This document shows positions 1,145 to 48,976 of a stretch of DNA of 64,000 nt, one piece after another; positions within the stretch are counted from its first letter, which is position 1; each line of letters begins with the position of its first letter. This DNA comes from Candidatus Dormiibacterota bacterium (GTDB taxonomy: Bacteria; Chloroflexota; Dormibacteria; Aeolococcales; Aeolococcaceae): positions 39,594 to 103,593 of the forward strand of contig DASRDZ010000010.1 of NCBI GenBank assembly GCA_035652335.1, given 5' to 3'. The notes below the pieces were generated by a model. That model was not told the origin of the DNA. It did not search any database and worked only from the letters and a program-made list of their open reading frames with translations. The translations under genes were made by a program, and so were the position numbers.

Positions 1145-1966
1145 CTAGGCCGCCCCGGCGGTGAGCTGCGCGTGGATGCGCACCAGCGCGTCGACGTCCT
1201 CACCGTGCGCGATGACCACGATGCCGTCGGCTCCGGCCTCGCGGTAGCGCTCCGCGGTGCCGGGCTCGACCTGCGACTGCCACACCGAGGCGAGCCGCTT
1301 GAGAGTGCGCGGATCCCGGCCGGCGCGCTCGCAGGCGGCGTCGACGCGTGCGTTGAGCTGGGCGTGGTCTTCGGGGCTGCCGAAGCCGTTCCACCAGTCG
1401 GCGTGGCGTGCGGCGACCTCCAGCATGCGCGGGCCGTGGCCGCCGATGAGCACCTCGGGGCGCGGTGACTGCAGCGGGGTCGGATAGCCGGCGGCGTCGG
1501 TGATGCGCGCATGCCTCCCCGTGAAGGAGAAGCGCTCGCCCGACCACATCCGCTCCAGCACCTGGCAGGTCTCGTCGAGCCGCCGCACGCGCTCACCGCC
1601 GGACGGGTACTCGACGCCGAACGCCTCGTGCTCGGCGGCCAGGCGCGCCGCGCCCAGCCCGACGACGAGCCGGCCGTCGCTGACGTGGTCCACGGTGGTG
1701 GCGATCCGCGCCAGCAGGGCGGGCTGCCGGAAGGTGACAGCCGTGACCAGAACTCCGAGGCGCGCCCGCTGCGTCGCCTCGGCGAGCGCGGCGAGCAGCG
1801 TCCAGCCGTCGTAGTCGCCCGGCGTCGTCTCGGTGAAGTAGTGGTCCCAGGACCACAGCGCGTCGTAGCCCGCGTCCTCGAGGGCGCGCCACGTGTCGCG
1901 CACGCGGCGGTACGGAGGCCGCGGTGGCGTCTGCACGTGGATCTCGAAGCGCCGCGCGCCGGTCAT
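1145..1966 (-). CDS. LLM-class (luciferase-like) F420/flavin-dependent oxidoreductase
   Basis: 273 aa; ATG at 1966-1964 and stop at 1147-1145. The N-terminus (WRALEDAGYDALWSWDHYFTE) and the LVVGLGAARL..EHEAFG pattern are typical of LLM oxidoreductases. Confidence 0.8.
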   Translation of the reverse strand: MTGARRFEIHVQTPPRPPYRRVRDTWRALEDAGYDALWSWDHYFTETTPGDYDGWTLLAALAEATQRARLGVLVTAVTFRQPALLARIATTVDHVSDGRLVVGLGAARLAAEHEAFGVEYPSGGERVRRLDETCQVLERMWSGERFSFTGRHARITDAAGYPTPLQSPRPEVLIGGHGPRMLEVAARHADWWNGFGSPEDHAQLNARVDAACERAGRDPRTLKRLASVWQSQVEPGTAERYREAGADGIVVIAHGEDVDALVRIHAQLTAGAA

Positions 1967-2234: not shown

Positions 2235-3131
2235 TCAGCCGGCGAAGAGGCGCGTCTGCCGCCCGCGCACGCCCGGCTTGCAGCGGAAGACGCCGCCCTC
2301 GCCCGGCCCGTCGTGGGGCAGCCCCTCGGGGTAGGCGCCTGCGCAGGTGATGTAGAGCTCGTCGAGGTCCTCGCCGCCGAAGACGGCGCTGGTCACCGCC
2401 AGCGGCGGGATGGTGACCACCTGGAGGATGTTCCCCTCGGGGTCGTAGCGGCGCACCTCGCCGGCCCCGTGCACCGCCACCCACAGCGCGCCCTCGGCGT
2501 CGAGGGTCATCCCGTCGGGGACGGTGAGCCCCGCCGGCGAGCTGTCGTCGTTGGGGATCTCGAAGGCGACGCGGCGGTTGCCGACGGTGCCCGCCGCGGC
2601 GTCGTAGTCGAAGGCGTCGACGCGGTAGGCGAAGGAGTCGATGTAGTAGAGGGTGCGCTCGTCGTCGGTCCAGTCCAGGCCGTTGGAGATGGTGACGTCC
2701 TCCAGCACGGTGTGGACCGACCCGTCGGGATCGAGGCGGTAGAGCGTGCCGGCACCCTGGTCGTACTCGTAGGCCATGGTGCCCGCCCAGAAGCGGCCCT
2801 GCGGGTCGCACTTGCCCTCGTTCATGCGCAGGTCGGGCCGGTCGGCCAGCACGGGGGCGATCATCTCCACCGCGCCTCCGCCGGCGTCGATCAGACCGAA
2901 GCCGTCCTGCACGGCGACGACGTAGCCGCCGTCGCGGCGCGGGGCGAAGGCGCCGATGTGCTGCCCGATGCCGTCGACGGTGTGCCGGCCGCTGCGCGGG
3001 TCGAGGTGGTGCAGCTCGCCGGACATGATGTCGACGAAGTCGAGCGCGCCGGTTGCCGGGTTCCAGACGGGCCCCTCGCCGAGCTTGCAGCGGCAGTCGA
3101 GGATGCACTCCGCGGTGAGCGAGGTGATCAT
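2235..3131 (-). CDS. SMP-30/gluconolactonase/LRE family lactonase (regucalcin-like)
   Basis: 298 aa. GGAGGG RBS 7 nt upstream of the ATG (3131). Beta-propeller family pattern (GEGPVWNPATGALDFVDI...TISNGLDWTDDERTLYYIDS...VPDGMTLDAEGALWVA). Sits downstream of the giant GH on the same strand. Confidence 0.85.
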   Translation of the reverse strand: MITSLTAECILDCRCKLGEGPVWNPATGALDFVDIMSGELHHLDPRSGRHTVDGIGQHIGAFAPRRDGGYVVAVQDGFGLIDAGGGAVEMIAPVLADRPDLRMNEGKCDPQGRFWAGTMAYEYDQGAGTLYRLDPDGSVHTVLEDVTISNGLDWTDDERTLYYIDSFAYRVDAFDYDAAAGTVGNRRVAFEIPNDDSSPAGLTVPDGMTLDAEGALWVAVHGAGEVRRYDPEGNILQVVTIPPLAVTSAVFGGEDLDELYITCAGAYPEGLPHDGPGEGGVFRCKPGVRGRQTRLFAG

Positions 3132-3177
3132 GGATTCTTCCCTCCACAGGCCGGCGGCTCAGGGCCGGCCGACTTCG

Positions 3178-6100
3178 TCAGTGATCGTAACGTAGGAGCC
3201 GGGGGCGGCCCAGCAGCCCGCTGACGCGCTGGTCCTCGGGACCGTAGATCGTCGGCACGCCACGCGCCACCAGCGGCGCCAGGGTGTTGGTCACCTCCAG
3301 CTCGATGAGGTTCTCGCCGGCACGCAGCGGGACCTCGATGCGCCAGGGGCGGCACCACAGCGCGCCGAGGTCCTCGCCGTTGACGCGCACGCCGGCGCTG
3401 CCGCGCACCTCGCCGAGGTCGAGCACCGCGTCCATGTCGCGCTCCACCCGCACCGTGGCGCGATGCAGGATGACGCCGGCGAAGGAGTCCAGGCCCTGGC
3501 GGTGCCAGGAGATGCCGGTGCGGATCACGCCGTCGCCGAGCGTCAGCACGGGGTGCTCGCGGAAGCAGGCGGCGCCGCGCCCGCCGGCCTGTGCCTGCAC
3601 GCGGATCGCCACGCGCGCACCGCCGCGCAGCGGCAGCACGCCGTCGTCGATCCGCACCTCCTCGCCGTCGAGCCAGGCCTGCACCTCGCCGTCGACCGGC
3701 AGCGTCATGCTGCGCGCGCCGGGCGGCGCCAGGAAGCAGAACCACGATGGCGGGGGCGGCTCCGGGGAGTCCGACCAGCGCTGCGGCACCAGCCCGCGCA
3801 CCACCTCCTCGCCCTCCAGCCAGGCGACGTCGGTGAGCGTGTGGCGGCGCTCGATCTGCTCGCGCGCTCCCCAGCCGGAGAGCGGGCTGCCCGCGCTGAG
3901 GCCGTAGGCGCCCACCCACGGTTCACCCGCGGCGCAGGTCTCCCAGCGCTCGTCGCTGCCGATCTCCAGCACCGCTCCCGAGCGCAGGCGCAGCCGCAGG
4001 CTGCAGCCGAAGCTCGGCGTGGTCATCGTCTCACCGGCGAAGGCCTCGACGACGTGCTCGCCCGCCTCCAGATGCGGCGGCACCTCGACGTGGTGCGTCG
4101 CCGCTGCGCTCGAGGACACCTCGACCTCGGCGGGCTCGCTCAGCGTGATGCGCCGCCGGAAGCGGCGCGCCTGCGGCGCGCCGCGATAGTCGGGGTGCAC
4201 CATCCGTCCGCCCCAGATGCCCACGGGCGCACGGCGGTAGGGCTCGCCGAAGCACCACGACAGCGCCGTCGGCGGCGGCTTGCTGTAGCCGCGATAGGCG
4301 AGATGCGGGGCGTGCCGCGGCACCACCTCGACGGCCACCTCGTGCCAGCCGGCGTCGAGGTGCACGGGGATGGCCAGCACGCCGTTGTCGAGCGGGCCGG
4401 CGAGATGCGTGCCGTCGAGCCACACCGTGATGACGGCGTCACCCTCGATGACGAGGTGCGTGTCGCAGGCCTGCGGCACGTGGCCGTAGGAGACCAGGCG
4501 TGCGCCGTCCTCGGGCAGCACCGCCTTCCACGTCTCCACCTTGCCGCGCACGCCGAAGAGCGTCTCCAGGCAGACGTCCTCGATGCCGTAGCGCTCCGAG
4601 TACTCGAAGGGGACGCCGTCGACGGTGGCCCGAGGGCCGTACGTCGACACCACCTCGCGCCAGCCGTCGCGCAGCATCCGCTCGCGCGGAGGGACGCGCC
4701 CGTTGTCGCCGCTCATGCGCTCCTCCATGCCCAGCGAACGCATGGGATGCTCGACGTCCTCGGGCACGACGGGAGCGCTGCGCCAGGCGGGATCGTCGCC
4801 CTCGCGCCAGGCGAAGGTGCGGCGCTCCACCGGCGGTGTGCCCGGGTTGGGCGGCAGGCGCAGGTCGCCCCAGCGGTTCTCGCCCCACTCGAGGTAGCGG
4901 CACTCCCACTCCACCGCCAGGGGGATCTCCTGCGACGGTGCCGGCGTGGCGACGCGCTGCGGCTCACCGGGCGGCAGCGCGACGATGGTGAAGGGGCCGT
5001 CGAGGCGCAGCAGCAGGTCGTCGCCGTCGAGCCGCGCGTCGAGGGGGTGCACGCTGCCGTCGCGGAACTCCCAGCGCTCGGCGCTCCGCGGGCCCACGCC
5101 GCGCACGCGCAGCTCGCCCTCGCCGGTGCAGAGCAGCAGGTCGAGGTCGCCGCAGCGCCGCCACTGCACGCGCACCTCCGCGCCGGCGGCGCGCGGCGGC
5201 GGCAGGGCGGCGGGCACCTCCGCGGGCGTGGCCACCACAGTCGCCAGCGAGCGCAATCTGGCCACGTGTGTCAGGAACTCGGCGTCGCCTGAGCCGTTCT
5301 CCGCCGACCAGTCCGGCAGCGGCTCGACGATCACCACGGGAACGCCTCGCTCCGCCCGCGCGATCAGGGCGTCGACCACCGGCAGCGGCAGGCAGCGGCA
5401 GGCCGGCAGCACCACGGGCAGGTCGGGCACCCGGTCCAGCCAGTCCTCGTTCACCGCCATGCGGTCGTGGCCGGCGTCGTGCAGGAGGCTGCGCGTCGCC
5501 CACTCGTCGGGCCGGTCCCAGCGCACCGAGCCGTGGTGCCCCATGAGCTGCACGTACACCTGGTTGGCGCGCTGCGCGCTCTCGCCCCACTCCATGTGCC
5601 CGAGCGTGTCGGCCCACACCGTCGAGAGCGGGTGGAGGACGGCCACCTCCGGGTGGTGCCGCCCCGCCGCCGCGGCCATCATCACCCGCGCCATGGCCTC
5701 GGCGAAGGGCGCGTAGTGCCGCGAGAAGGGCTGGCGCCAGAGCATCTCCGGCGAGGCCCACTCCCACCACATGCCGCGCGTCGCGTAGTAGCCACCGTGT
5801 GGCAGGAACAGCGACGCGCCCTCGCGCGCCCACTCGAAGAGCGCCTCCGCCTGGTGCGCCAGCGAGAGTCCCTGCCCCTGCGAGTGGAAGCCCTCCAGCC
5901 AGACGCGCGAGGCTCCGGTGAGCGTGGCCAGGGAGAGGTGGAAGCGGATGTCGCCCATCTGGTCACTGCCCGGCGCGTTGGCCCAGGCCATGGTCCGGAA
6001 GTGGTCGACGTAGGCGAGGGCGCCGATGATCGGCGTGCCCATCCGCGACATCTGGTCGTAGCCGGCCAGCAGGCCGCGCTCGCGCACCATGCGCGCGTAC

Positions 6101-6858
6101 GGCTCGGTGTAGGCGCGCTCGATGCGCTGCCTGGCCACGTCGCACACCTGCCAGCGCAGCGCCGGCATCCGCGGGTCGTCGGACGGCGCGAAGGGGACCG
6201 CGGGCGGGTCGAAGCCCTTGACGGCGCGGAACTCCTCGGCGAAGCCCGGCGCCCCGGTGCCGAAGCACCACATCTCGTCCTCGAAGAGCGCGACGACGGG
6301 ATCGCCGTCGAGGTCGCCGGTCGACTCCGCCAGCATGCGGTTGACCGCGCCGTCCCTCGCCAGCGTCGCGACGGCGCGCACGTTGCCGAAGTCGAAGCCG
6401 TAGGGAAGCACGGTCGGCCCCGGCGCCGTCATCTCGCCGCGGAAGTCGGGATGCTCGCGCAGCAGCGCGGACATGTCGCGCATGCCGCCCGCCTGGTAGG
6501 GGCTGCCGGTGACGACGCCGAGCCCCAGCTCGCGACAGCGAAGCAGGATGCGCCGGTAGAGCGCGGTGCGCTCGGGCGTGCCCACCGGCGGGTCGTCGCC
6601 GACCGAGCCGCCGGCAGGGCCGAAGGCTGCCAGCGAGGCCGTCGCCACACCGCCGCAGCCCATCTCGACCAGGCGGTCGAGCTGCCAGCGCAGCCGCTCC
6701 TCGTCGAGCTTCTCGCCGCTCCACCACCACGCCGGGATGGGGCGCCACCTGTTCTCCGGGTTGCCCGCGAAGGCGCTGCGCAGCTCGGCGGGATCCGCGA
6801 TCGCGCCGGTCCAATCCATGCGCACAGATGCCCTGGGGGCGGCGTCGTCGACGATCAT
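3178..6858 (-). CDS. Large multidomain glycoside hydrolase (1226 aa; family uncertain, GH106/GH2-like TIM-barrel plus C-terminal beta-sandwich)
   Basis: The real start is the ATG at 6858-6856 (MIVDDAAPRASVRMDWTG...), not the GTG at 7356; the N-terminal 166 codons of the track ORF are Arg-rich junk. This ATG overlaps the stop of the upstream PhyH gene (ATGA), indicating coupling. Motifs include WWWSGEKLDEERLRWQLDRLVEMGCGGV and a C-terminal ...GENLIELEVTNTLAPL tail typical of GH C-terminal beta-sandwich domains. Confidence 0.7.
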   Translation of the reverse strand: MIVDDAAPRASVRMDWTGAIADPAELRSAFAGNPENRWRPIPAWWWSGEKLDEERLRWQLDRLVEMGCGGVATASLAAFGPAGGSVGDDPPVGTPERTALYRRILLRCRELGLGVVTGSPYQAGGMRDMSALLREHPDFRGEMTAPGPTVLPYGFDFGNVRAVATLARDGAVNRMLAESTGDLDGDPVVALFEDEMWCFGTGAPGFAEEFRAVKGFDPPAVPFAPSDDPRMPALRWQVCDVARQRIERAYTEPYARMVRERGLLAGYDQMSRMGTPIIGALAYVDHFRTMAWANAPGSDQMGDIRFHLSLATLTGASRVWLEGFHSQGQGLSLAHQAEALFEWAREGASLFLPHGGYYATRGMWWEWASPEMLWRQPFSRHYAPFAEAMARVMMAAAAGRHHPEVAVLHPLSTVWADTLGHMEWGESAQRANQVYVQLMGHHGSVRWDRPDEWATRSLLHDAGHDRMAVNEDWLDRVPDLPVVLPACRCLPLPVVDALIARAERGVPVVIVEPLPDWSAENGSGDAEFLTHVARLRSLATVVATPAEVPAALPPPRAAGAEVRVQWRRCGDLDLLLCTGEGELRVRGVGPRSAERWEFRDGSVHPLDARLDGDDLLLRLDGPFTIVALPPGEPQRVATPAPSQEIPLAVEWECRYLEWGENRWGDLRLPPNPGTPPVERRTFAWREGDDPAWRSAPVVPEDVEHPMRSLGMEERMSGDNGRVPPRERMLRDGWREVVSTYGPRATVDGVPFEYSERYGIEDVCLETLFGVRGKVETWKAVLPEDGARLVSYGHVPQACDTHLVIEGDAVITVWLDGTHLAGPLDNGVLAIPVHLDAGWHEVAVEVVPRHAPHLAYRGYSKPPPTALSWCFGEPYRRAPVGIWGGRMVHPDYRGAPQARRFRRRITLSEPAEVEVSSSAAATHHVEVPPHLEAGEHVVEAFAGETMTTPSFGCSLRLRLRSGAVLEIGSDERWETCAAGEPWVGAYGLSAGSPLSGWGAREQIERRHTLTDVAWLEGEEVVRGLVPQRWSDSPEPPPPSWFCFLAPPGARSMTLPVDGEVQAWLDGEEVRIDDGVLPLRGGARVAIRVQAQAGGRGAACFREHPVLTLGDGVIRTGISWHRQGLDSFAGVILHRATVRVERDMDAVLDLGEVRGSAGVRVNGEDLGALWCRPWRIEVPLRAGENLIELEVTNTLAPLVARGVPTIYGPEDQRVSGLLGRPRLLRYDH

Positions 6859-7634
6859 CGGCAGCCGCGGAAGGGCATGTGGTCGCCGCTGCGGAAGCGC
6901 GGCGGCGTGGCGTACACGTTGCGGTGCGGCGTCCCGTCGCCGCGGAGCAGGTAGCAGATCGGCCAGGGTTGCTCGCCGCGGATGCGCGTGGTGGTGGGGA
7001 TGTAACGGATGGTCAGCCCGCAGCGGCGGCGCGTCGAGCGGTTCGCGCGCGAGCCGTGCACGATGCTCGGGTGGTGCACCGAGACCCCGCCTCGCGGCAC
7101 CACCACGTCGACGGCGGCGGACTCGTCGACGTCGAGCGCGATCTCGGAGCTGAGCAGGTTCTCGATCGCCGTGACCTCGCGCCGCTCGTGCACCGGCCAG
7201 TCGTGGCTGCCGGGGATGACGCGCAGGCAGCCGTTCTCCGGCAGCGAGTCGTCGACGGCGAGCCAGAGCGAGACCACCTCCATCGGCTCCAGCTGCGGCC
7301 AGTAGGCGGCGTCCTGGTGCCAGAGCACGGGCTGGCCGTCGCCGGGTGGCTTGCACACGTACTGCGAGGCGAAGAGCGCGATGCCGTCGCCGATGAACTG
7401 CGCGGCGACGTCGAGGAGGCGGTCGTCGCCGACCAGGCGCACCCAGAAGGGGTCGTCGGCGAGCAGGTCGACGCCAAGCGTCTCCGGGCGCCGCCCCGGG
7501 TTGCGCGCGGTGAGCCAGTCGACATGGGCGGCCACCTCGTCGATGAGCTCAACGTCGAGGACGTCGGGGAACACCGCGTAGCCCTGGCGGGCGTAGTGCT
7601 GCAGCGGCGACTCGGCGGTCGCGGCGGTGCTCAT
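6855..7634 (-). CDS. Phytanoyl-CoA dioxygenase (PhyH) family Fe(II)/2-oxoglutarate oxygenase, paralog 1
   Basis: 259 aa from the ATG at 7634 (MSTAATAESPLQHYARQGYAVFPDVL...). Carries the HxD...H facial triad context (LWHQDAAYW ... VSVHHPSIVHGSRAN). Its TGA stop (6857-6855) overlaps the ATG of the downstream GH. The track ORF 6855..8045 has an Arg/Gly/His-rich junk N-terminus. Confidence 0.75.
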   Translation of the reverse strand: MSTAATAESPLQHYARQGYAVFPDVLDVELIDEVAAHVDWLTARNPGRRPETLGVDLLADDPFWVRLVGDDRLLDVAAQFIGDGIALFASQYVCKPPGDGQPVLWHQDAAYWPQLEPMEVVSLWLAVDDSLPENGCLRVIPGSHDWPVHERREVTAIENLLSSEIALDVDESAAVDVVVPRGGVSVHHPSIVHGSRANRSTRRRCGLTIRYIPTTTRIRGEQPWPICYLLRGDGTPHRNVYATPPRFRSGDHMPFRGCR

Positions 7635-7648
7635 CGCCGGCGGCCCGG

Positions 7649-8557
7649 TCAGCGGCGGAGGGTCTGCACGAAGCGGCGCAGACGCGACGCTGCCGCCGCG
7701 CCCGCCGCCCCGCCGCTCGGCGCCGGGGGAGCCGGAGCAGGGATGAGGCTGCCGGCGAAGACGAGTGCGCCCAGCGCGGTGAGCAGGGTGCCGGGGAGCA
7801 GGCTGCGCAGCGGCAGCCCGGCGGCGACCGCCCGGATCGGCGTCCTGCGCAGCGGCGCCGCCCTCACCGGTGCTCGCGGCGCCGCCGGGACGACCGGTGC
7901 GGTCTCGACGGTGGGGATGGTGACCACGGCGGGCACCGGCGGCGGCGTGGGCACCAAGAGGTCGGCGGGCGGCAGTGGCGGCAGCACGGTGTTGCCGTCG
8001 TCGGTGGTGAGGATGGTGAGGATCGCCGAGGCCTGGCGGACGCACGGCGTGAGCTGGTCACCGGGATTGGGCAGCGGCACGGGCGGCGCGGCCGGCGGCG
8101 AGGGAGGAGTCACCGGAAGCGCAGGGATCGTGGCCACCGGCGACGTCAAAGGAGAGGGGCAGGCGGTTGCAGCGGGTGAGCCTGCGCCGATGTCCTGATA
8201 CACGGTGACCACCGCATCGCCCGGCGGGTCGTCCTGGGGGATCTCGAAGTTGCACTGCACCGTCCCGGTGTTGCTGGCGGAGCCGACCGCGCACTTCTGC
8301 GCCGGCGCGCCCGGCGCGCAGGCGGGTGCCGGGCAGACCGTCAGCGTGTACCCGACGGAGGGGGCGAACCCCTGCCCGGAGACGCTGATGGTGGCGCCGG
8401 GCAGGCCGCTGGCCGGCGCGACCTGGACGGCCGTCGAGGCCGTCGGCGGGGGCGGCTGGGTCGCGGCGGCCGGGTGCGCGTCGAGCAGCGAGAGCACGCC
8501 GGCCAGCGCCATGGCGGCGGCGACCGCCCTGGCGGCGCGACGGGGAGCTGTGCCCAT
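7649..8557 (-). CDS. Secreted proline-rich membrane-anchored protein (N-terminal signal peptide, C-terminal TM helix)
   Basis: Start trimmed to the ATG at 8557 (MGTAPRRAARAVAAAMALAGVLSLLDAHPAAA is a signal peptide). It has a Cys-containing domain, then long PPxP tracts (TPPSPPAAPPVPLPNPG..PTPPPVPAVV), and a C-terminal hydrophobic anchor (LLTALGALVFAGSLIP). It is the first gene of the operon PhyH1 - GH - SMP30. Confidence 0.55.
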   Translation of the reverse strand: MGTAPRRAARAVAAAMALAGVLSLLDAHPAAATQPPPPTASTAVQVAPASGLPGATISVSGQGFAPSVGYTLTVCPAPACAPGAPAQKCAVGSASNTGTVQCNFEIPQDDPPGDAVVTVYQDIGAGSPAATACPSPLTSPVATIPALPVTPPSPPAAPPVPLPNPGDQLTPCVRQASAILTILTTDDGNTVLPPLPPADLLVPTPPPVPAVVTIPTVETAPVVPAAPRAPVRAAPLRRTPIRAVAAGLPLRSLLPGTLLTALGALVFAGSLIPAPAPPAPSGGAAGAAAASRLRRFVQTLRR

Positions 8558-8599: not shown

Positions 8600-8685
8600 G
8601 CGGCCCGGCGGCGACTCTAGCATTGACCACCTCGTATGATTAGGTAAAAATTCTAACAATGCAAGGTGGAGGAGGAAGGAAGGCC
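8600..8685. promoter_or_regulatory. AT-rich divergent promoter region between the Pro-rich/PhyH/GH operon (-) and the ABC transporter operon (+)
   Basis: TTGACCACCTCGTATGATTAGGTAAAAATTCTAACAATG lies in a roughly 72% GC genome. It contains TATGAT and TAAAAAT-like -10 candidates, and a strong RBS block GGAGGAGGAAGG follows. Confidence 0.4.
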
Positions 8686-9201
8686 GTGCCTGCGCGGTCC
8701 GCTGCCCGCGGCGCACGCCTGGCCGCGCTGGCCGGGGCGCTCGCCGCGGCCGTCACCCTGAGCGGCTGCGGCGTCCGGCTGCAGGCCAACCACCTGGTGG
8801 TGCGCATCGACGCCGCCGGCATGCACCTCGTCAGGGTCAACGGCAGCGCGGCCCGCGCCGGCACGGCCATCCCCTCGGGAGAAACCGTCATCGACGTCAT
8901 CAACGCCGACCCGCAGCTCGCCCACACGGTGAGCCTGGTGCAGGGCGTCGCCACGCCGGGCGCTCTCCCCGAGCGCGTGCGCGCCGCCCGCCTGGTCAGC
9001 GACGACCCCGACCAGATCCTCGACATGACCGACTCGCTCGACCGCGACCAGGTCAAGGTCAGCGCCAGCGGCGGCATCATCGACGACCCCCAGACTGCGC
9101 AGTTCCACGAGTACCTCGCGCCCGGCCAGGCCTACCTCATCGTCGACGTGGCCCACGCGAGCCGCGACTGGCTCGCCATCACCCCGAGCGGCGCCGCATG
9201 A
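8686..9201 (+). CDS. Small lipoprotein of unknown function (lipobox LSGC)
   Basis: GTG at 8686 sits 10 nt after GGAGGAGGAAGG (8668-8680). Signal plus lipobox: MPARSAARGARLAALAGALAAAVTLSGC. The stop TGA 9199-9201 overlaps the ATG of the next gene (ATGA). The ATG at 8659 chosen by the track lies inside the RBS. Confidence 0.6.
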   Translation: MPARSAARGARLAALAGALAAAVTLSGCGVRLQANHLVVRIDAAGMHLVRVNGSAARAGTAIPSGETVIDVINADPQLAHTVSLVQGVATPGALPERVRAARLVSDDPDQILDMTDSLDRDQVKVSASGGIIDDPQTAQFHEYLAPGQAYLIVDVAHASRDWLAITPSGAA

Positions 9202-11537
9202 ACGCTCCACGGACCGCCACGCCGCAGGGCGTCCGTCCCACCGGGACGGCGGCCGCGCTTGGGCTGCGCCTGCGGGCGAGCTGGCGAGCCATGGCGGCGG
9301 CGCTGGCGTCGGAGGCGCGCCTCTGGGCGCCCGCCGCGGTGTGGGCGCGGCTGCGCGCCCTGCCGCTGCGGCGGAGGGTCGCCATCGCCGGCTGGATCGG
9401 CCTGGTGGTTGCCGTCATGATCGCCGGCAACCTGCCCTTCGGCAGCGACCACGGCATCCTCCTGCCGCGCAAGATCCCGCTCGGACTGGTGCTCCAGGGC
9501 GTGATCTTCGGTGCGGTGTACTCGCTGGTGGCCATCGGGCTGGTGCTGGTCTACCGCGCCGGCCGCTACATCAACTTCGCCCAGGGCGGCGCCGGCGCGG
9601 TGGGCGTGGTGCTCACCGCCAAGCTCATCCAGATCACCGGGATGAACTTCTTCCTCGCCGCGATCGTCGGCGTGGCGGCAGCCGGGCTGCTGGCGATGCT
9701 GGTGGAGGTGCTGGTCTTCCAGGGCCTGCGCATCTTCAGCTCGCCGCGCCTGGTCGCCACCGTGGCCACCCTCGGCGTGATGCAGCTCTTCGGCTTCGTC
9801 GAGTACATGGTGCGCGGCATCGAGGCGGACCACTACTACAACCTGCTGCCCATTCCCAAGGCGCCGCTCAACCTCTCGTTCAGCATCGGCATCGTCGACT
9901 TCAACGGCGCCCACGTCCTGGTGCTGCTGGTGGTGCCGGTGGTGGTGCTGGCGCTGACGCTGTTCCTGCGCCTCACCGACTTCGGCGCCGCCATCCAGGC
10001 CGCCGCTGAGAATGCGGACCGCGCCCGGCTGGTGGGCATCACGGTGCGCCGCATGCACACCTACGTGTGGGCGATCGCGGGCGTGCTCAGCGGGCTCACC
10101 GCCATCCTCGCCGCGCCCTTCTTCAACTTCTCCAACGGCGTCAGCTCAGGACCGTCGCTCTTCCTGCTCGCCCTGGCACCCGCGGTGCTGGGTGGCATGA
10201 ACAGCCTGGCGCAGACCTTCTTCGCCTCCCTCGGGCTCGGCGTGATGGAGTCCGTGGTGGGCTGGAACTACAACGTGGCGACGCTGGAGATGGTGCTCCT
10301 CGGCGTGCTGCTCGTCGGCCTGCTGCTGCGCCGCCGGTTGACCAGCCGCACCACCGAGGGCGAGGAGCGCTCCTTCGCGGTGGCCTCGCGGGTGCGCCAG
10401 TTCCCACGCGAGCTGGCCAGGTTGCCGCTGGTGCGCGCCTGGCGCGGGGGCTTCCGCGCTCTGCTGCTCGGGATGGCCGTCCTGCTGCCGCTCGGCTTCG
10501 ACCTGCAGCACCAGGTGGAGGCCGAGAACGTCCTCGTGTTCATCATCGCCGGCGTCTCGCTGGTCCTGCTCACCGGCTTCTCGGGGCAGATCTCCTTCGG
10601 GCAGTTCGGCATCGTCGGCTTCGGTGCGCTCTTCGGCGGCTGGCTGCTCACCAACGCGGGCCTCGACTACTGGACCTCGATGCTCGTCGTCACCGTCGCG
10701 GGCGGCATGGTGGCGGCGGTCATCGGCATCCCCGCACTGCGCATCCGCGGCCTCTTCCTCGGGGCGGTGACGCTCGCCTTCGCGCTCGCCTGCACCGACT
10801 ACTTCTTCTCCGACAGCGGCCACTTCCCCATCTTCACGCCGAGCGGGCCCGTGCACCGTCCCAGCCTGCCCTTCGGCTGGGACCTGGGCACCCAGCTCGA
10901 CAAGGCGGGCGACGAGCTGCACCTCTACTGGTTCTGCCTCGGCGTGCTGGTGCTGGTGATGCTGATGGTCCGCGCGCTGCGCAACAGCCGCTGGGGGCGC
11001 GCCTTCCAGGCGGTGCGCGACAACGAGCGCGCCGCCAACGCCTACGGCGTGGGCTCGATGCAGACCAAGCTGCTCGCCTTCGCCGCCTCGGGGATGATCG
11101 CCGCGCTGGCCGGCTACCTCTACATCACCGTGCAGCAGCAGGTGGCCCCGACGTCGTTCCCGGTGACCACCTCGCTGGTGCTCTTCAGCGCGGTCGTCAT
11201 CGGCGGGCTCGGCTCGCTCTCCGGCGCGGTCATCGGCGGCCTCTTCTTCGAGGGCGTGCAGTACTTCATCAAGGTGGACGCCATCCAGCTGCTGACCACG
11301 AGCCTCGGCTTGCTGGTGGTGCTGGCGTTCTTCCCGGGAGGGCTGGGCTCGCTGTTCTTCAACGTGCGCGACGCGCTGCTCCGCCGCTACGCGCTGCGCC
11401 GCCGCATCGTGGTGCCGTCGCTGCTCGCCGACCGTCGGGTCGAGGACGGCACGGCGCCGGATGCCGAGGCTGCGCTGGTGGGCAACGCGGTCACCGCCGC
11501 AGCACCGGTCGGCGTCGGCGTGGGAGGAGGACAGTGA
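9198..11537 (+). CDS. Fused LivH-LivM branched-chain-amino-acid-type ABC transporter permease (two permease domains, 779 aa)
   Basis: The first half carries a LivH-like signature (LVAIGLVLVYRAGRYINFAQGGAGAVG) and the second half a LivM-like one (LLTGFSGQISFGQFGIVGFGALFGGWLL). The ATG overlaps the upstream stop; the stop TGA 11535-11537 overlaps the GTG of the next gene. Confidence 0.85.
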   Translation: MNAPRTATPQGVRPTGTAAALGLRLRASWRAMAAALASEARLWAPAAVWARLRALPLRRRVAIAGWIGLVVAVMIAGNLPFGSDHGILLPRKIPLGLVLQGVIFGAVYSLVAIGLVLVYRAGRYINFAQGGAGAVGVVLTAKLIQITGMNFFLAAIVGVAAAGLLAMLVEVLVFQGLRIFSSPRLVATVATLGVMQLFGFVEYMVRGIEADHYYNLLPIPKAPLNLSFSIGIVDFNGAHVLVLLVVPVVVLALTLFLRLTDFGAAIQAAAENADRARLVGITVRRMHTYVWAIAGVLSGLTAILAAPFFNFSNGVSSGPSLFLLALAPAVLGGMNSLAQTFFASLGLGVMESVVGWNYNVATLEMVLLGVLLVGLLLRRRLTSRTTEGEERSFAVASRVRQFPRELARLPLVRAWRGGFRALLLGMAVLLPLGFDLQHQVEAENVLVFIIAGVSLVLLTGFSGQISFGQFGIVGFGALFGGWLLTNAGLDYWTSMLVVTVAGGMVAAVIGIPALRIRGLFLGAVTLAFALACTDYFFSDSGHFPIFTPSGPVHRPSLPFGWDLGTQLDKAGDELHLYWFCLGVLVLVMLMVRALRNSRWGRAFQAVRDNERAANAYGVGSMQTKLLAFAASGMIAALAGYLYITVQQQVAPTSFPVTTSLVLFSAVVIGGLGSLSGAVIGGLFFEGVQYFIKVDAIQLLTTSLGLLVVLAFFPGGLGSLFFNVRDALLRRYALRRRIVVPSLLADRRVEDGTAPDAEAALVGNAVTAAAPVGVGVGGGQ

Positions 11538-13573: not shown

Positions 13574-14415
13574 TGGCCAGGCCGGTCGCGCTCGAGATCC
13601 GCGACGTGCTGGTGCAGTTCGGCGGCGTGCGCGCGGTCGACGTCGAGCACATGGCCATCAGGCGCGGGCGCATCGCCGGCCTGATCGGGCAGAACGGCGC
13701 CGGCAAGACCACCCTCTTCGACGTCATCAGCGGCTTCGTGCCGCAGCGCCGCGGCTCGGTCGTCCTCGACGGCGAGCACGAGCTGACCGGCCTCTCGCCG
13801 GTGCAGCGCGCCCACCTCGGCCTGGGACGCAGCTTCCAGGCCGCCACCCTCTTCGAGTCGCTGACCGTCGCCGAGTCGCTGATGGTCGCCTTCCACACGC
13901 GCATGGAGAGCAGCGGTCCGCTGTCGTCGGCGCTGCAGCTTCCCTGGGCGCGGCGCGAGGAGCGCGCGGTGCGGGTGCGCGTCGACGAGCTGATCGACCT
14001 GATGGGCCTGGGCGCGTTCCACGACAAGTTCATCAGCGAGCTGTCCACCGGGACGCGGCGCATCGTCGACCTGGCCGGCGTGCTCGCCCTGCAGCCCAGC
14101 GTGCTGCTGCTCGACGAGCCGTCGAGCGGCATCGCCCAGCGCGAGGTGGAGCAGCTCGGCGCGCTGCTCCGCGAGGTGCGCGAGGCGCTCGACTGCACCA
14201 TGGTGGTGGTCGAGCACGACATCCCCCTGGTGCGCACGCTCTGCGACGAGCTGTATGCGATGGAGACCGGGCGCGTCATCGCCCACGGCACCTGCGACGA
14301 GGTGCTGTCCGACGACAAGGTTGTGGAGTCCTACCTGGGCGGCGGCAGCCGCGCGGTGGAACGGAGCGGCGCCGCCACGGCGCCGGTCCCGGTTGCGATG
14401 GGAGGAACGCTGTGA
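13573..14415 (+). CDS. LivG-like ABC transporter ATP-binding protein
   Basis: Walker A (GLIGQNGAGKTTLF), signature (LSTGTRR) and Walker B (LLLDEPSSG). The ATG shares one nucleotide with the upstream TGA (TGATG). Confidence 0.85.
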   Translation: MARPVALEIRDVLVQFGGVRAVDVEHMAIRRGRIAGLIGQNGAGKTTLFDVISGFVPQRRGSVVLDGEHELTGLSPVQRAHLGLGRSFQAATLFESLTVAESLMVAFHTRMESSGPLSSALQLPWARREERAVRVRVDELIDLMGLGAFHDKFISELSTGTRRIVDLAGVLALQPSVLLLDEPSSGIAQREVEQLGALLREVREALDCTMVVVEHDIPLVRTLCDELYAMETGRVIAHGTCDEVLSDDKVVESYLGGGSRAVERSGAATAPVPVAMGGTL

Positions 14416-18660: not shown

Positions 18661-19472
18661 CCCGCAGCGGCGTGGTGCACCGGCCCGACGGTGCGCGCAT
18701 CCCCTGGGAGCTGCTCGGCGACGGCGGCGGTCCGCGCATGGTGTTCGGCCACAGCCTGATGGGCCGCGGCCTCGGCGCGGAGCCGATCTACCGCCCGCTC
18801 CTCGACGGCGGCTGGGCGATGCTCACCATGGACCAGCGCGGGCACGGTGAGGCCTCGCCGCCACCGGGCGGCGACTTCGCCGTGGAGACGCTGGCCGGCG
18901 ACATGCTGGCGGTGCTCGACGAGGTGGGGTGGGACACCGCCTGGCTGGGCGGCGGTTCGATGGGCGCCGCCGTCGCCACCGCCGCCGCCGCGCTGACGCC
19001 GCATCGCGTCGAGGGCCTGGCCCTGCTGGCGCCCGCCGTCGGCGGCGCACCCAATCCTGCGCTGCAGCCGTTCGCCGCGCTCGGCGACGTCTTCGGGCGT
19101 GACGGCCTCGACGCCGGCATCGCCGCGTACTCCGCCATGGCACGCGAGAACGGCGCGGACGAGGCCCTCCTCGCCCTGCGCGCCGAGCAGTTCCGCATGC
19201 AGCCTGCGGAGAGCTGGGTCGCCGCGCTGCGCGGCATCGCGCGCTGGAACCTGGCGGAGGCGCTCGACGCGGTGCAGGAGCTCGACGTCCCAACCGCCGT
19301 CGTCGCCTGGACCGGCGACGACGTGCACCCGTTGAGCGTCGCCGAGGACCTGGTGCGGCGCCTGCGCGACGCGCGACTGCACGTGCTGCAGGAGTGGAAC
19401 GGCGACCCCGCGCACCTCTTCCGCGTCATGCTCGACATGACGCAGGCCGTCAGCGCCGCCCGCCCACGCTGA
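18657..19472 (+). CDS. Alpha/beta hydrolase fold protein
   Basis: GTG start overlaps the upstream TGA (GTGA). Nucleophile elbow GGGSMGA plus an HGE motif; 271 aa. Confidence 0.75.
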   Translation: MTRSGVVHRPDGARIPWELLGDGGGPRMVFGHSLMGRGLGAEPIYRPLLDGGWAMLTMDQRGHGEASPPPGGDFAVETLAGDMLAVLDEVGWDTAWLGGGSMGAAVATAAAALTPHRVEGLALLAPAVGGAPNPALQPFAALGDVFGRDGLDAGIAAYSAMARENGADEALLALRAEQFRMQPAESWVAALRGIARWNLAEALDAVQELDVPTAVVAWTGDDVHPLSVAEDLVRRLRDARLHVLQEWNGDPAHLFRVMLDMTQAVSAARPR

Positions 19473-20364
19473 GCAGTCGCGACGGCGGGGTGCGCCGCTC
19501 GCTGACGATGTCGAAGCGCTGCACCACGCGCATCGGCCGCGGCGGCTCGATCCACTGCGCCGTCGACCAGCCACGAGTCAGCTCGTCCCAGTCGGGGATG
19601 AGCGGGAAGTAGTGCGGCCTGAGGCCGAAGTCGACGACGGCGTCGTCGCTGCGCTGGTAGCGGAAGTCGACGGAGAGACGCAGGCGATCGGTCGTGTTGG
19701 GCACCGAGCCGTGCACGGTGAGGCTGTGGAAGAGCAGCACGTCGCCGGCCCGGAAGTCGGTGGCCACCCATCGCGGGTCGTCATGGCGCACGCGCACGCC
19801 GACGCCGCCGGTGCCGACCATGCCGTGCACGCGGCGGAAGCCGTGCCGGTGCGAGCCGCGCAGGACGCGCAGGCCGCCCATCGCGGCCGGCACGTCGCCG
19901 AGCGGGATCCACATGGTCAGAACGTCGACCGTGCCCTGGATCAGGGGGAAGTCCTGGTGCGGGGGGGTGATGAAGCCGGGATCCTGGGGCAGGCCGGCGC
20001 GGAGGATCTTCAGCGGGTAGACGAGCAGCTCGCCGTCGCCGTGCGCGTCGAGCACCGCCGACGCCAGCGCGCGCAGGTGGGGGTGGAAGGCGAAGCGATG
20101 GAAGCTCTCCATCGCTTGCACGGCGGCGTACATGTCGGGGAAGGTCTCGCCGCCCTCGCGGCAGGCGCGCGGACCGGGATGCGCCTCGGCGGGATCGCCG
20201 CCCGCTGCGATCCACCCCTTGTCCTGCAGCGCTGTGGCGATCTGGGCGCGGATGTCCAGAACGTCGGCGCGGGGGAGGAGGCCGCGCAGCAGCAGGTGGC
20301 TGTCGCGGTCGAGCCGCCGGCGCAGCGCCTCGCCCTCGCCGAGCAGCGCCGTGGAGTCGACCAT
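19450..20364 (-). CDS. PhyH-family Fe(II)/2OG dioxygenase, paralog 3
   Basis: Start trimmed to the ATG at 20364 (MVDSTALLGEG...), 24 nt downstream of the GH51 stop. Metal triad context PPHQDFPLIQG ... LTVHGSVPN. Confidence 0.8.
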   Translation of the reverse strand: MVDSTALLGEGEALRRRLDRDSHLLLRGLLPRADVLDIRAQIATALQDKGWIAAGGDPAEAHPGPRACREGGETFPDMYAAVQAMESFHRFAFHPHLRALASAVLDAHGDGELLVYPLKILRAGLPQDPGFITPPHQDFPLIQGTVDVLTMWIPLGDVPAAMGGLRVLRGSHRHGFRRVHGMVGTGGVGVRVRHDDPRWVATDFRAGDVLLFHSLTVHGSVPNTTDRLRLSVDFRYQRSDDAVVDFGLRPHYFPLIPDWDELTRGWSTAQWIEPPRPMRVVQRFDIVSERRTPPSRLLSVGGRR

Positions 20365-20387
20365 GGCCGGCGCGGCGGCGGTGCTCC

Positions 20388-21911
20388 TCATGCGCCCGCG
20401 TCGACGATGAGCGCGCCCGCGGTGTGCGGCGGCAGCGTGAGCGTGGCCGTGCCCGTGCCGTCGACCTCGACCGCGACGTCGCGGAAGTGGACGGCGTCGG
20501 GATGGTCCTCGTCGTTGCGGGTGAAGGGGCCCGCTCCGGCGAGGTGGCGCAGGCGCCCGCGCCGTCCCGGCGGCAGGCCGTGCACCTCGACGCCGAGCGG
20601 CTCGTCGAAGAGGCGGTTGGCGAGGAACACCGTGGTGCCCGAGGCGTCGGCGGTGGCGGCGGCGTCGAGCGCGGCGGCGCGGCGCTCACCGGTCATCGGC
20701 GGGTCCTGCACCTGCACGTCGCGGAAGGGCGGCGCGGTGATCTGCTCCGCCTCGACCTGCACCGGCACGGTGCCGGCGCGCGCAGCACGGCGGTAGAGCA
20801 TCGCCACCAGGTAGGCGCTGGTCACGAAGCTGCGCTCACCCCGCGTCTGGATGGGCGCCATGCAGTTGACCAGGTGGCTGATGTGGGCCATCTGCACCCG
20901 CGAGGCGCGCTCGATCATGCGGTTGAAGCAGCCGGCGAAGAACACCGACCAGCTGAGCGGGTGGTTGGTGGTGATGAGGTCGCGCCACTGGTACCACAGG
21001 TTCCACTCGTCGAGCGAGATGGGGATGGCGCGCGAGCCGCCGGCGCTGTCGAACTCCGCCATGTTGCGGTCGAGCATGATGCCGAGCTCGTCGCTGCCGG
21101 TGGCCACCTGCAGGTAGTCCTCGACGTCGTCGCGCAGGTCGCGGCTCAGCACCGGCCCCGGGAAGTAGAAGTGCACCGACAGCGCGTCGATGTGCTCGCC
21201 GGCGATCTCCACCAGGCCGCGGTTCCACTCGGCGCTGCCGCCCTCGGGTCCGAGCCCACCGCAGCCCACGGCGACGATGCGGATGCCCGGGTCGACCGCG
21301 CGCATCGCGGTGGAGAACTCGACGAAGCGGCGCGCGTACTCGCCGACCGAGCAGTGGCCGATCTCCCAGTCGCCGTACGTCTCGTTGCCGACGGCCCACC
21401 ACGTCACCGGACGCGGTGCCTCGCCGCGGTTGCAGTACCGCACCCACTCCGCGGCCTCCTCGGGCGTGCCGCTGCCGAAGTTGGCCACGAGCATCGGCTC
21501 GACGTCGGTGTCCAGGCAGTAGCGGAGGAACTCGTCGGTGCCCACCTGGTTGGTCTCCACCGGGCCGAACTCGCGGGCCCACTCCGGCGGGAAGGCGTCG
21601 CCGAAGCTGAAGTCGGTCCAGAACTGGCGGTCGTGGGTCGGCCGCTTCGACTTGGGCCCGACGCCGTCGCGCCAGTGGTACCAGTCGGAGAAGCAGCCGC
21701 CCGGGTAGCGGAACATGGTGGGCTGCAGCGCGCGCACGGCGTTGAGGACGTCGCTGCGCGGGGCGTCGCGCTCGGTCGACCAGATGCCGCCGTACATGCC
21801 GCGGCCGAAATGCTCGGTGAGCGCGCCGAACACGAATGGGGAGAGCGGCACGGGTCCTGCACCGGCCGCGCCCACCCGGATCGCGGCGCGCGCCGAGGTG
21901 CTCGCTGGCAT
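20388..21911 (-). CDS. GH51-family alpha-L-arabinofuranosidase-like glycoside hydrolase
   Basis: 507 aa. WAVGNETYGDW provides the catalytic acid/base context (NE). MFRYPGGCFSDWYHW is typical of the GH51 TIM barrel. Confidence 0.85.
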   Translation of the reverse strand: MPASTSARAAIRVGAAGAGPVPLSPFVFGALTEHFGRGMYGGIWSTERDAPRSDVLNAVRALQPTMFRYPGGCFSDWYHWRDGVGPKSKRPTHDRQFWTDFSFGDAFPPEWAREFGPVETNQVGTDEFLRYCLDTDVEPMLVANFGSGTPEEAAEWVRYCNRGEAPRPVTWWAVGNETYGDWEIGHCSVGEYARRFVEFSTAMRAVDPGIRIVAVGCGGLGPEGGSAEWNRGLVEIAGEHIDALSVHFYFPGPVLSRDLRDDVEDYLQVATGSDELGIMLDRNMAEFDSAGGSRAIPISLDEWNLWYQWRDLITTNHPLSWSVFFAGCFNRMIERASRVQMAHISHLVNCMAPIQTRGERSFVTSAYLVAMLYRRAARAGTVPVQVEAEQITAPPFRDVQVQDPPMTGERRAAALDAAATADASGTTVFLANRLFDEPLGVEVHGLPPGRRGRLRHLAGAGPFTRNDEDHPDAVHFRDVAVEVDGTGTATLTLPPHTAGALIVDAGA

Positions 21912-40004: not shown

Positions 40005-40101
40005 CGGGGCTGCATCCTCCCAACCGACCCCCTGCGCCGAATTAGTCTAGAATCATAACGAACCCGGCGGAGGGCGGTCGAAGGAGCGTACCCGGGAGCG
40101 A
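40005..40101. promoter_or_regulatory. Divergent GH31 / GH38 intergenic region with AT-rich box
   Basis: GAATTAGTCTAGAATCATAACGAACC, with TAGAAT and CATAAC hexamers and a central TCTAGA palindrome. Confidence 0.35.
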
Positions 40102-48706: not shown

Positions 48707-48976
48707 CGCTGCTCGCATGGCGCCGTGGGCCCTGTGCCCACGCGAGGGCAAACCCGGTCGTGCCCTGAGCCTCTTGACATCGGCGCGGCAGGGCGTGAGA
48801 CTTCACGGTGGCTCTGATGCGTGCGACGTTCCCGCCGCATCGGACGGCTAGGGGCCTCGCGGACGTGTGAGGTCGTGACCGGGTCGGGTGCCCACCGGAC
48901 GGAGACGTCAGGCAGGCACCCGGCGCTGTTTAACGGGCCGCAAGGCCGTCCGTCGATCCTCTGACCGATCGGTACG

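Follow-up and report, generated by a model that had tools for sequence, protein, structure and literature searches.

Enzymes of the Ram106B subgroup of glycoside hydrolase (GH) family 106, for example Thermotoga maritima TM1074, are active rhamnosidases of ~116 kDa that lack a signal peptide and depend on Co or Ni, and a D-E motif replacing D-S has been described for this subgroup (Baudrexl et al. 2019, PMC6828813). Within Pfam family PF05721 (PhyH), FJS and PHYHD1 are 2'-O-methyl-ribonucleoside demethylases (Stonkus et al. 2025, PMC12709175), and a P450 6-O-methyl-D-galactose demethylase is found in marine porphyran-utilisation loci (Robb et al. 2018, PMC6292453). EvdO1 and EvdO2 (everninomicin) and SnoK and SnoN (nogalamycin) are PhyH-fold oxygenases that act on antibiotic sugar moieties. 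The SMP30/regucalcin gluconolactonases and Caulobacter XylC (7PLB) have been reviewed in the setting of the Weimberg and Dahms pathways (PMC9795676). Relatives of several of these enzymes are encoded next to one another in a 64,000-nucleotide stretch from a Candidatus Dormiibacterota bacterium (contig DASRDZ010000010.1, positions 39,594 to 103,593; hereafter the window), in four co-directional minus-strand genes that run from a Pro-rich protein through a PhyH oxygenase (PhyH-A) and a 1226-aa protein to an SMP-30 lactonase:

8630..8665, no strand: AT-rich divergent intergenic patch, 33% GC against a G+C content of 73% for the window
7649..8557, minus strand: secreted, C-terminally membrane-anchored Pro-rich protein of 302 aa, assigned from hydrophobic segments and composition
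6855..7634, minus strand: PhyH-family Fe(II)/2-oxoglutarate (2OG) dioxygenase PhyH-A, 259 aa, cytoplasmic, assigned by PF05721
6855..6858, minus strand: ATGA shared by the end of the PhyH gene (stop TGA) and the beginning of the hydrolase gene (start ATG), read from the sequence
3178..6858, minus strand: multidomain GH106-like glycosidase of 1226 aa, assigned by profile, fold and conserved residues
3140..3145, minus strand: GGAGGG, the ribosome-binding site for the lactonase, 8 nt ahead of the ATG at 3131
2235..3131, minus strand: SMP-30/gluconolactonase-family aldonolactonase of 298 aa, cytoplasmic, the last gene of the operon, assigned by PF08450

It is rather probable that these genes belong to a cytoplasmic glycan-island module made up of a GH106-like exo-glycosidase, a lactonase of an oxidative pathway and a recently inserted, carbohydrate-linked PhyH-A. 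A sequence-only reading of the same stretch had placed the four minus-strand genes behind an AT-rich patch, and the open reading frames (ORFs) together with the 33%-GC patch bear this out; the ATGA junction at 6855-6858 and the GGAGGG site of the lactonase (3145..3140) are likewise real. Its gene set holds, but the span that it gave, 3178-8557, leaves out the lactonase named in its own title (2235-3131).

Profile, fold and conserved residues agree that the 1226-aa protein is very probably a glycoside hydrolase, as that reading had proposed, and place it in a deeply divergent, rare GH106-like clade that is closest in type to the intracellular, metal-dependent Ram106B enzymes. A profile of the family (46 sequences) finds the GH106 structures 5MWK/5MQM (E 2e-30) and 6Q2F (E 2e-28) in the PDB, over the barrel and the C-terminal domain. 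The AlphaFold2 (AF2) model of residues 14-1212 (predicted local distance difference test, pLDDT, 90.6; predicted template-modelling score, pTM, 0.91) leads Foldseek to the GH106 entries 6Q2F (6e-23) and 5MQM (2e-19) first, with the top three all GH106, and thereafter to GH42, GH35 and GH164 barrels. Like GH106 and Ram106B enzymes, the protein combines an N-terminal (beta/alpha)8 barrel with several beta-sandwiches and a C-terminal rhamnosidase-type jelly roll; compared with the solved GH106 structures, those of BT0986 (5MQM/5MWK) and RHA-P (6Q2F), it is ~100-200 residues longer and includes a GH42M-like alpha/beta domain. Only in its last ~70 residues does the protein show a weak match to a jelly-roll model of rhamnosidases and to the BT0986 C-terminus: the NCBIfam model rhamnoside_JR (NF045579) scores 44.2 bits, below its cut-off of 50, over residues 1125-1192 only.

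The active site can be compared with that of BT0986, whose residue roles were taken from PMC6828813. The general base E593 aligns with E322 (in VWLEGF) and the Ca ligand D458 with D194, and E195 (in FEDE) stands in place of S459, which gives the protein the Asp-Glu pair of Ram106B where BT0986 has D458-S459. In the eight-stranded barrel of the model E195 is predicted to follow strand 4 and E322 strand 7. D194, E195, D268, D285, D299 and E322 are invariant in 46/46 sequences, including homologues only 24-31% identical, and we regard E195 and E322 as the candidate catalytic residues. The site appears to be a variant one and not necessarily dead, because the D-E substitution matches Ram106B, whose members are active rhamnosidases. 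A rhamnoside as the substrate is a default guess.

No N-terminal hydrophobic segment or signal peptide was found in the 1226-aa protein, which argues for a cytoplasmic location. Large, without a signal peptide and presumably intracellular, it resembles Ram106B, as it does in having its gene near sugar-catabolic genes and an ATP-binding cassette (ABC) transporter. The second Met (M14, 13 codons downstream) was considered as the start and rejected, since the closest homologues keep the N-terminal extension (P0002, P0004 and P0005), in the form A-(A/P)-P in P0004 and P0005, two sequences that do not have that Met.

In a database of 5.8 billion sequences the hydrolase has 38 full-length homologue clusters (49-86% identity), all labelled hypothetical. 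Their sources are mostly Gaiellaceae, Acidimicrobiales, Ilumatobacter, Frankiaceae and other actinobacterial metagenome-assembled genomes (MAGs), and Dormibacteraeota are represented as well. A few remote homologues (some at 22-31% identity, others at 27-36%; 24-39% for PF17132-positive proteins as a group) carry the GH106 model PF17132, whose cut-off is passed by five of the seven nearest out-group homologues tested. When the N-terminal 547 residues were searched against a 50%-identity library (1.84 billion representatives), the clade appeared as one full-length cluster (P0020, E 2e-183) and a few short fragments, and full-length relatives beyond that cluster fall to ≤39% identity. It is now possible to recognise a clade of ~1200-aa "hypothetical" proteins, mostly from soil MAGs of Gaiellaceae, Acidimicrobiia and Dormibacteraeota, as divergent GH106-like glycosidases. 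A small CAZy family is thereby enlarged, and annotating carbohydrate metabolism in little-studied soil phyla becomes easier. The GH106-like gene also occurs as tandem duplicates on two contigs of Gaiellaceae-type or soil-metagenome origin (L002, 8001-11720 and 12799-16488; L009, 2-529 and 1646-5344), and one MAG has two unlinked copies (L003 and L004).

PhyH-A looks like an active Fe(II)/2OG oxygenase of a highly conserved subfamily, to judge from its residues. It matches PF05721 with E 7e-34 (118.3 bits, cut-off 22); across orthologues and two paralogues the HxD...H iron triad (H106, D108 and H193) is invariant and the 2OG-binding R204 is at least 90% conserved. Its AF2 model (pLDDT 91) has the double-stranded beta-helix (DSBH) fold, with template-modelling (TM) scores of 0.77 to ThoJ and 0.70 to PHYHD1. 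The neighbours in sequence and fold are ThoJ, SyrB2, PHYHD1, a proline hydroxylase, SnoN/SnoK and EvdO2; the best PDB sequence match is ThoJ (entry 6ZYK, recognised as ThoJ through Foldseek; E 5e-20, 24% identity), with PHYHD1 at 1e-14 and EctD at 1.5e-11. The protein is identical to an NCBI entry from a Candidatus Dormibacteraeota MAG. More than 2800 matches were found, ~60% identical across phyla, and orthologues at 50-73% identity occur in Dormibacteraeota, Actinomycetota, Bacillota, Armatimonadota and one haloarchaeon. Two assignments were rejected: a halogenase, given that HxD is present and not HxA/G, and an orthologue of a nucleoside demethylase or ectoine hydroxylase, given 23% identity to the proven Poribacteria 2'-O-methyl-nucleoside demethylase and scores far below the cut-offs of the NCBIfam equivalogs.

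Comparison with the described oxygenases indicates what chemistry could be expected. PhyH-A shares Pfam family, DSBH fold and HxD...H triad with FJS and PHYHD1, which offer a chemical precedent, since they strip O-methyl groups off sugar rings in a 2OG-dependent reaction that releases formaldehyde; these enzymes, only 23% identical, take free nucleosides as substrates, and none is reported from a glycan locus. The porphyran P450 is a likeness in concept, an oxygenase among glycoside hydrolases that removes a blocking decoration, the corresponding role of PhyH-A being hypothetical; it is a haem P450 with redox partners, as opposed to an Fe/2OG enzyme, and comes from different organisms. The EvdO and Sno enzymes, of which EvdO2, SnoK and SnoN are among the PhyH-A neighbours, show that enzymes with the PhyH fold can accept oligosaccharides or aminosugars and oxidise C-H bonds of sugars, but they are biosynthetic, ~22-25% identical and located in antibiotic clusters rather than catabolic loci. 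PhyH-A most likely acts on a carbohydrate-derived small molecule, and its chemistry may be, for example, O-methyl removal or sugar hydroxylation.

PhyH-family Fe(II)/2OG oxygenases recur, tightly coupled, in the glycan-degrading loci of several phyla, so the earlier suggestion to look for PhyH-glycosidase pairs in other genomes finds a positive answer. In Acidimicrobiales a PhyH-A orthologue is ATGA-coupled to a downstream GH31 gene, and the same locus holds four more PhyH genes interleaved with GH78, GH31, a hydrolase homologue, GH172 and esterases; in Cohnella the orthologue lies 1 nt upstream of GH38. The orthologue heads a sugar ABC-transporter operon in Alicyclobacillus, is one of three tandem PhyH genes with flanking GH38s in another Dormibacteria genome, is convergent with GH30 near a glucuronoyl esterase in Capsulimonadales, adjoins a cell-surface amylase in Paenibacillus, and in Ilumatobacter is the middle one of three tandem PhyH genes beside Gfo/Idh/MocA and SGL genes. 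On a plasmid of Halomontanus rarus (NZ_CP119799.1, 215885-234625; L030) an orthologue 52% identical has as neighbours GH172, an ABC transporter, a heparinase II/III-family protein, a second PhyH, an enolase-family protein and Gfo/Idh/MocA oxidoreductases, a context that carries the association of PhyH-A with carbohydrates across the boundary between bacteria and archaea. In the window itself a PhyH paralogue (19450..20391, minus strand, 313 aa, 25% identical to PhyH-A) has its ATG (20391) overlapped as ATGA by the stop of a GH51-like gene (alpha-L-arabinofuranosidase, 20388..21911, minus strand), in the order GH to PhyH, the reverse of PhyH-A to hydrolase.

Among eight contexts chosen from the PhyH-A match list alone, six have a CAZyme or a sugar transporter within two genes; the binomial P of ~9e-4 to 1e-2 for assumed backgrounds of 0.19-0.30 is a rough estimate and not a proper survey. 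Seen from the hydrolase, seven of 13 distinct loci carry at least one PhyH-family gene in the fetched flanks (up to ~10 kb). Three to five PhyH genes per 20 kb are interleaved with glycoside hydrolases in L022, L023 and L024, and in L022 a PhyH paralogue, GH31, a hydrolase homologue and an esterase form one tight operon. A homologue from Streptomyces, 44% identical to PhyH-A, lies in a non-ribosomal peptide synthetase/polyketide synthase (NRPS/PKS) cluster, and functional equivalence therefore probably ends near 50% identity. Because conservation is high despite the changing GH partners, a common small substrate is favoured over a partner-specific polymer. Literature text searches for PhyH with polysaccharide utilisation and with GH38 found no paper describing an association between PhyH and glycan loci.

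The particular pairing of PhyH-A with this hydrolase is not ancestral; it is recent and unique to this genome. On two independent sets of contigs (L013 and L028/L029) with a hydrolase ~86% identical, the Pro-rich gene is followed directly by the hydrolase gene, with no PhyH between them, and the same divergent ABC operon and Pro-rich gene are kept. The hydrolase of L013 starts ATGAGCACCGCCGCCCCTGAAACCGTGCGCATGGATTGG (MSTAAPETVRMDW). PhyH-A in the window begins with the same ATGAGCACCGCCGC (MSTAA...), the ancestral hydrolase start, the window hydrolase resumes with ...GACGCCGCCCCCAGGGCATCTGTGCGCATGGATTGG (MIVDDAAPRASVRMDW), and a short GCCGC repeat flanks the PhyH-A ORF at the junction. It looks as if the PhyH-A ORF entered the hydrolase gene within codons 4-5 and acquired its original start site, apparently leaving the hydrolase on a new ATG that overlaps the PhyH stop; parsimony points to one insertion, not two losses. 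Since relatives with an 86%-identical hydrolase are without PhyH-A, the adjacency gives no evidence of a dedicated partnership, and the sequence-only proposal of an oxygenase tied to this particular hydrolase falls on the same observation. The 8 kb around the 70%-identical hydrolase of L006 yielded no PhyH-A orthologue; in L013 the hydrolase gene shares its 3' end with an overlapping PhyH paralogue.

The junctions within the operon are short: the PhyH ATG lies 14 nt past the Pro-rich stop, the hydrolase start overlaps the PhyH stop, and the spacer between hydrolase and lactonase is 46 nt, with no terminator-like or Rfam element found inside the four-gene unit. No Shine-Dalgarno sequence is evident upstream of the hydrolase ATG at the ATGA junction, so reinitiation coupling is likely for its translation. 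Further ATGA/GTGA overlaps stand at 9198-9201, 11534-11537 and 20388-20391; such overlaps are common in the window, and the ATGA junction alone is thus not unusual. The patch at 8630-8665 is common to the minus-strand operon and the plus-strand ABC-transporter operon. On the minus strand TTGCAT (8664..8659) and TAGAAT (8655..8650) lie in the AT-rich patch, to which we infer a minus-strand promoter function. A promoter scan of the patch found the plus-strand TTGACC-17-AAAAAT at 8623-8651, a promoter-like site for the ABC-transporter operon, and none for the minus strand.

Beyond the lactonase, an F420-type LLM oxidoreductase gene (1145..1966) was rejected as an operon member, as a 268-nt gap with a near-palindrome argues that it is probably a separate unit. 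The near-perfect 16-bp palindrome, GTGCAAACGGTTGCAC at 2174-2189, lies in a relatively AT-rich part of the gap and looks like an operator of a separate transcription unit. An LLM-class oxidoreductase also stands immediately upstream of the hydrolase homologue in L007.

The last gene encodes a bona fide SMP30-type aldonolactonase. PF08450 is matched over positions 1-245 of the 246-position model (E 4e-80, 269.5 bits), the mouse and human SMP30 proteins at E 6e-60 and the Caulobacter xylonolactonase 7PLB at E 3e-34. Like SMP30 and XylC, the protein is a full-length six-bladed propeller with all four metal-site residues kept (E19, N104, N150 and D206, aligned with E18, N103, N154 and D204 of SMP30). 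As in the pentose oxidative pathways, a 66%-identical orthologue in L014 stands beside an IlvD/EDD dehydratase and an aldehyde dehydrogenase, a pentose-type arrangement; unlike XylC systems, the lactonase gene in the window follows a glycosidase and not a dehydrogenase or dehydratase. Non-phosphorylative oxidative sugar pathways run through a dehydrogenase, a lactonase and a dehydratase, and then an aldolase or a diketo-hydrolase. Hydrolysis yields no lactones, and a dehydrogenase step is needed first; the lactonase is therefore best understood as a pathway enzyme that follows a dehydrogenase, not as one that acts directly on the hydrolase product. The sequence-only reading was right about the identity of this enzyme and wrong in having it process a lactone directly from the hydrolase. 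Candidate dehydrogenase genes are present elsewhere in the island. Naming the sugar from the pathway genes was attempted and abandoned, as MR_MLE, SDR and FAA hydrolase point to a 6-deoxyhexose and L014 to a pentose Weimberg pathway.

The Pro-rich protein has hydrophobic segments at residues 8-27 (signal-like) and 253-276 and a Pro content of 18% overall and 25% in residues 125-260. Residues 40-105 form a small Ig-like (neocarzinostatin-like) domain, and if translation began at an alternative ATG, at 8623, the product would be 324 aa long. It had been proposed to tether the enzymes, an idea that fails on topology, the enzymes being without signal peptides and the Pro-rich protein extracytoplasmic. 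Only four homologue clusters were found in 5.8 billion proteins. Membership of the enediyne chromoprotein/neocarzinostatin family was rejected, as the scores lie below the cut-offs (PF00960, 20.9 bits against 25, E 3.6e-4; NF040680, 25.9 against 86, E 7e-6; apokedarcidin match, E 0.012) and only a small beta-sandwich is shared. A sortase (LPXTG) substrate was rejected too: the C-terminus reads ...SLLPGTLLTALGALVFAGSLI...RLRRFVQTLRR, with the motif LPGTL and no Gly at the fifth position, and seems better described as a membrane anchor.

Read as a cytoplasmic glycan-island module, the locus would work as follows. Oligosaccharides would be imported, the syntenic neighbouring ABC system being the candidate importer, and would probably be trimmed by the GH106-like exo-glycosidase together with other cytoplasmic glycoside hydrolases. 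A sugar dehydrogenase would make a lactone from the released sugars, the SMP-30 lactonase would open it, and dehydratases with aldolase or hydrolase enzymes encoded elsewhere in the island would lead the product into central metabolism. PhyH-A would oxidise a decorated (e.g. methylated) monosaccharide so that the hydrolases or catabolic enzymes can proceed. Its recent insertion would have interrupted the hydrolase gene in its first codons, and translation of the hydrolase would now depend on reinitiation at ATGA. The order and junctions of the genes, their assignment to families and folds, the conservation of catalytic residues, the footprint of the insertion and the repeated occurrence of PhyH-GH pairs are shown; in this scheme we infer all substrates, the oxygenase chemistry, the direction of the insertion and co-transcription. 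Tentatively, the PhyH-A subfamily might be seen as a carbohydrate-active Fe(II)/2OG "auxiliary activity" of cytoplasmic glycan catabolism, which would perform O-demethylation (of 3-O-methylmannose, 6-O-methylglucose or 2-O-methylfucose) or C-H hydroxylation. Anomeric hydroxylation could then give an aldonolactone for the neighbouring SMP-30 lactonase, and the PhyH paralogues of the island would be enzymes with different sugar specificities.

Several points weigh against the module reading. The Pfam scan of the 1226-aa protein gave no match, even at E ≤ 10, and unlike GH106 enzymes the protein has no direct PF17132 match. Unlike BT0986, it is without a ~270-residue insertion and keeps only some of the metal ligands, with E538 replaced by D268 (His in Ram106B) and E561 by M290, and the general acid E461 (in DSWE) aligns with a non-acidic position. 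The specificity is not inferable, as the hydrolase neighbours vary by locus and the lactonase context in L014 is pentose-type, not rhamnose-type. No characterised relative of PhyH-A exceeds 26% identity, so its substrate is a guess, and two contexts of PhyH-A orthologues hold no carbohydrate genes (in one the gene is alone beside an AraC regulator). In six of the 13 hydrolase loci the fetched flanks (up to 8-10 kb) are free of PhyH genes, three of the six, L008, L009 and L012, being short contigs with much less flank. The pairing with the hydrolase is a single recent event and could be neutral, and co-transcription of the four genes is suggested by spacing, the one feature that speaks for it.

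Some of these points would be expected if PhyH-A were an accidental neighbour, a neutral recent insertion into a recombination-prone island that serves as an unrelated scavenger of, for example, a modified nucleoside or an amino-acid derivative. Two close relatives without PhyH-A, the visible insertion footprint and orthologues alone beside a regulator or in a non-carbohydrate context agree with this, as do ~60% identity across phyla with changing GH partners, which suggests one common small substrate, and the fact that PF05721 members commonly demethylate free 2'-O-methyl nucleosides. We nevertheless consider it rather doubtful: tight PhyH to GH junctions have originated separately for three GH families, the window has another PhyH paralogue joined by ATGA to the GH51-like gene, three to five PhyH genes per 20 kb stand among the glycoside hydrolases of L022, L023 and L024, and PhyH-A is only 23% identical to a proven nucleoside demethylase. 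The opposite extreme is a dedicated partnership, in which the oxygenase modifies the glycan of its own hydrolase, the coupling sets their stoichiometry, the lactonase takes a lactone directly and the Pro-rich protein is the tether. The hydrolase start without an independent ribosome-binding site at ATGA, the tight operon of L022 and the paralogue overlapping the hydrolase 3' end in L013 would suit such an arrangement. It is improbable all the same, since the adjacency is missing with 86%-identical hydrolases and no PhyH-A orthologue lies within 8 kb in L006 (70%), the cytoplasmic enzymes are separated from a protein outside the membrane, the PhyH-A family exceeds the hydrolase clade in size by a factor of hundreds (>2800 against 38 matches), and hydrolysis yields no lactones.

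Catabolism of natural products or xenobiotics, with the hydrolase deglycosylating a flavonoid, saponin, glycolipid or antibiotic and PhyH oxidising the aglycone or a deoxysugar, we regard as distinctly improbable. The characterised GH106/Ram106B enzymes do act on small rhamnosides (with an oligosaccharide or glycoconjugate proposed for the intracellular ones), the fold neighbours SnoK, SnoN and EvdO2 act on antibiotic sugar moieties, esterases, a beta-lactamase-family hydrolase and an APH-type kinase are nearby, and the 44%-identical homologue belongs to an NRPS/PKS cluster; but polysaccharide-type CAZymes (GH31, GH38, GH51-like, GH130 and a sulfatase) and sugar-acid catabolism dominate the island, and PhyH-A orthologues at ≥50% identity sit with sugar transporters and glycoside hydrolases, not in biosynthetic clusters. 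That the large protein is no hydrolase but a non-catalytic binder, a transglycosylase or a phosphorylase with a GH106-like fold would fit the failure of every family hidden Markov model to reach its threshold and the acid residue of BT0986 not being conserved in register. It is very improbable in view of D194, E195, D268, D285, D299 and E322, invariant in 46 sequences at the ends of barrel strands, and of the Ram106B enzymes that have the same D-E motif and are active rhamnosidases. The module reading is the one that we retain.

As a genetic unit the operon is nothing out of the ordinary for a glycan island. In several other phyla, however, close relatives of PhyH-A are encoded immediately ahead of sugar-cutting enzymes, and this suggests an undescribed oxidative helper step in glycan breakdown. 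If PhyH oxygenases do remove or oxidise sugar decorations, this would be a second known oxidative unblocking route beside the P450 sugar demethylases, and the fate of methylated sugars in soil carbon turnover would become directly testable; if they do not, what is left is an ordinary sugar-catabolic operon with a recently inserted gene.

The remainder of the island has further genes:

8659-16750, plus strand: unusual ABC-transporter operon divergent from the Pro-rich gene, syntenic in L013, L028 and L029
16790-17584, minus strand: third PhyH-family gene, 264 aa, PF05721 E 4e-5 (scored on a longer ORF translation)
48965-51448, plus strand: fusion of a GT4-type glycosyltransferase (Glycos_transf_1) with a GH130 mannoside-phosphorylase-like domain, 827 aa

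The ABC operon encodes a 180-aa lipoprotein-like ORF (LSGC lipobox), a 779-aa double BPD_transp_2 permease fusion, a 679-aa fusion of a major facilitator superfamily (MFS) protein and an ABC ATPase, a LivG-type ATPase and a 591-aa lipoprotein-like ORF without a Pfam match. The third PhyH gene, with that 591-aa ORF on one side and a gene for a beta-lactamase-family serine hydrolase on the other, has no glycoside hydrolase next to it; the window thus has three PhyH genes within 14 kb. Its glycoside hydrolases are GH51-like, an MGH1-like GH, GH31, GH38 with a domain like a carbohydrate-binding module (CBM), and the GT-GH130 fusion, and it also contains a sulfatase, esterases including a BD-FAE esterase, a ROK regulator and an APH-type kinase. 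Sugar-acid catabolism is represented by a zinc alcohol dehydrogenase, an aldo-keto reductase, two MR_MLE dehydratases, an SDR, an FAA-family hydrolase and an RraA-like aldolase. The same gene repertoire surrounds the hydrolase homologues in L014, L022, L023 and L006.

Some minor observations concern the same islands. GH38 proteins of ~1160 aa recur in PhyH islands (window, 40051-43560; L023, 23246 to the end; L024, 416-3901); an N-terminal CBM-like module (domain III of polysaccharide lyase family 4, PL4) is present in the window and L023 copies, and for the L024 copy only the GH38 N-terminal domain was recorded. L007 has fused permeases similar to those of the ABC operon close to its hydrolase homologue, and L024 has them close to its PhyH and GH38 genes. 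Proteins that join Kelch/beta-propeller and GH10 domains (plus fn3), an unusual combination, adjoin PhyH genes in two relatives of the locus (L013, 7408-9831; L014, 1-1238 and 15221-17389). The only Rfam matches in the window are tRNA genes at 53514-53600 (minus strand) and 54760-54851 (plus strand).

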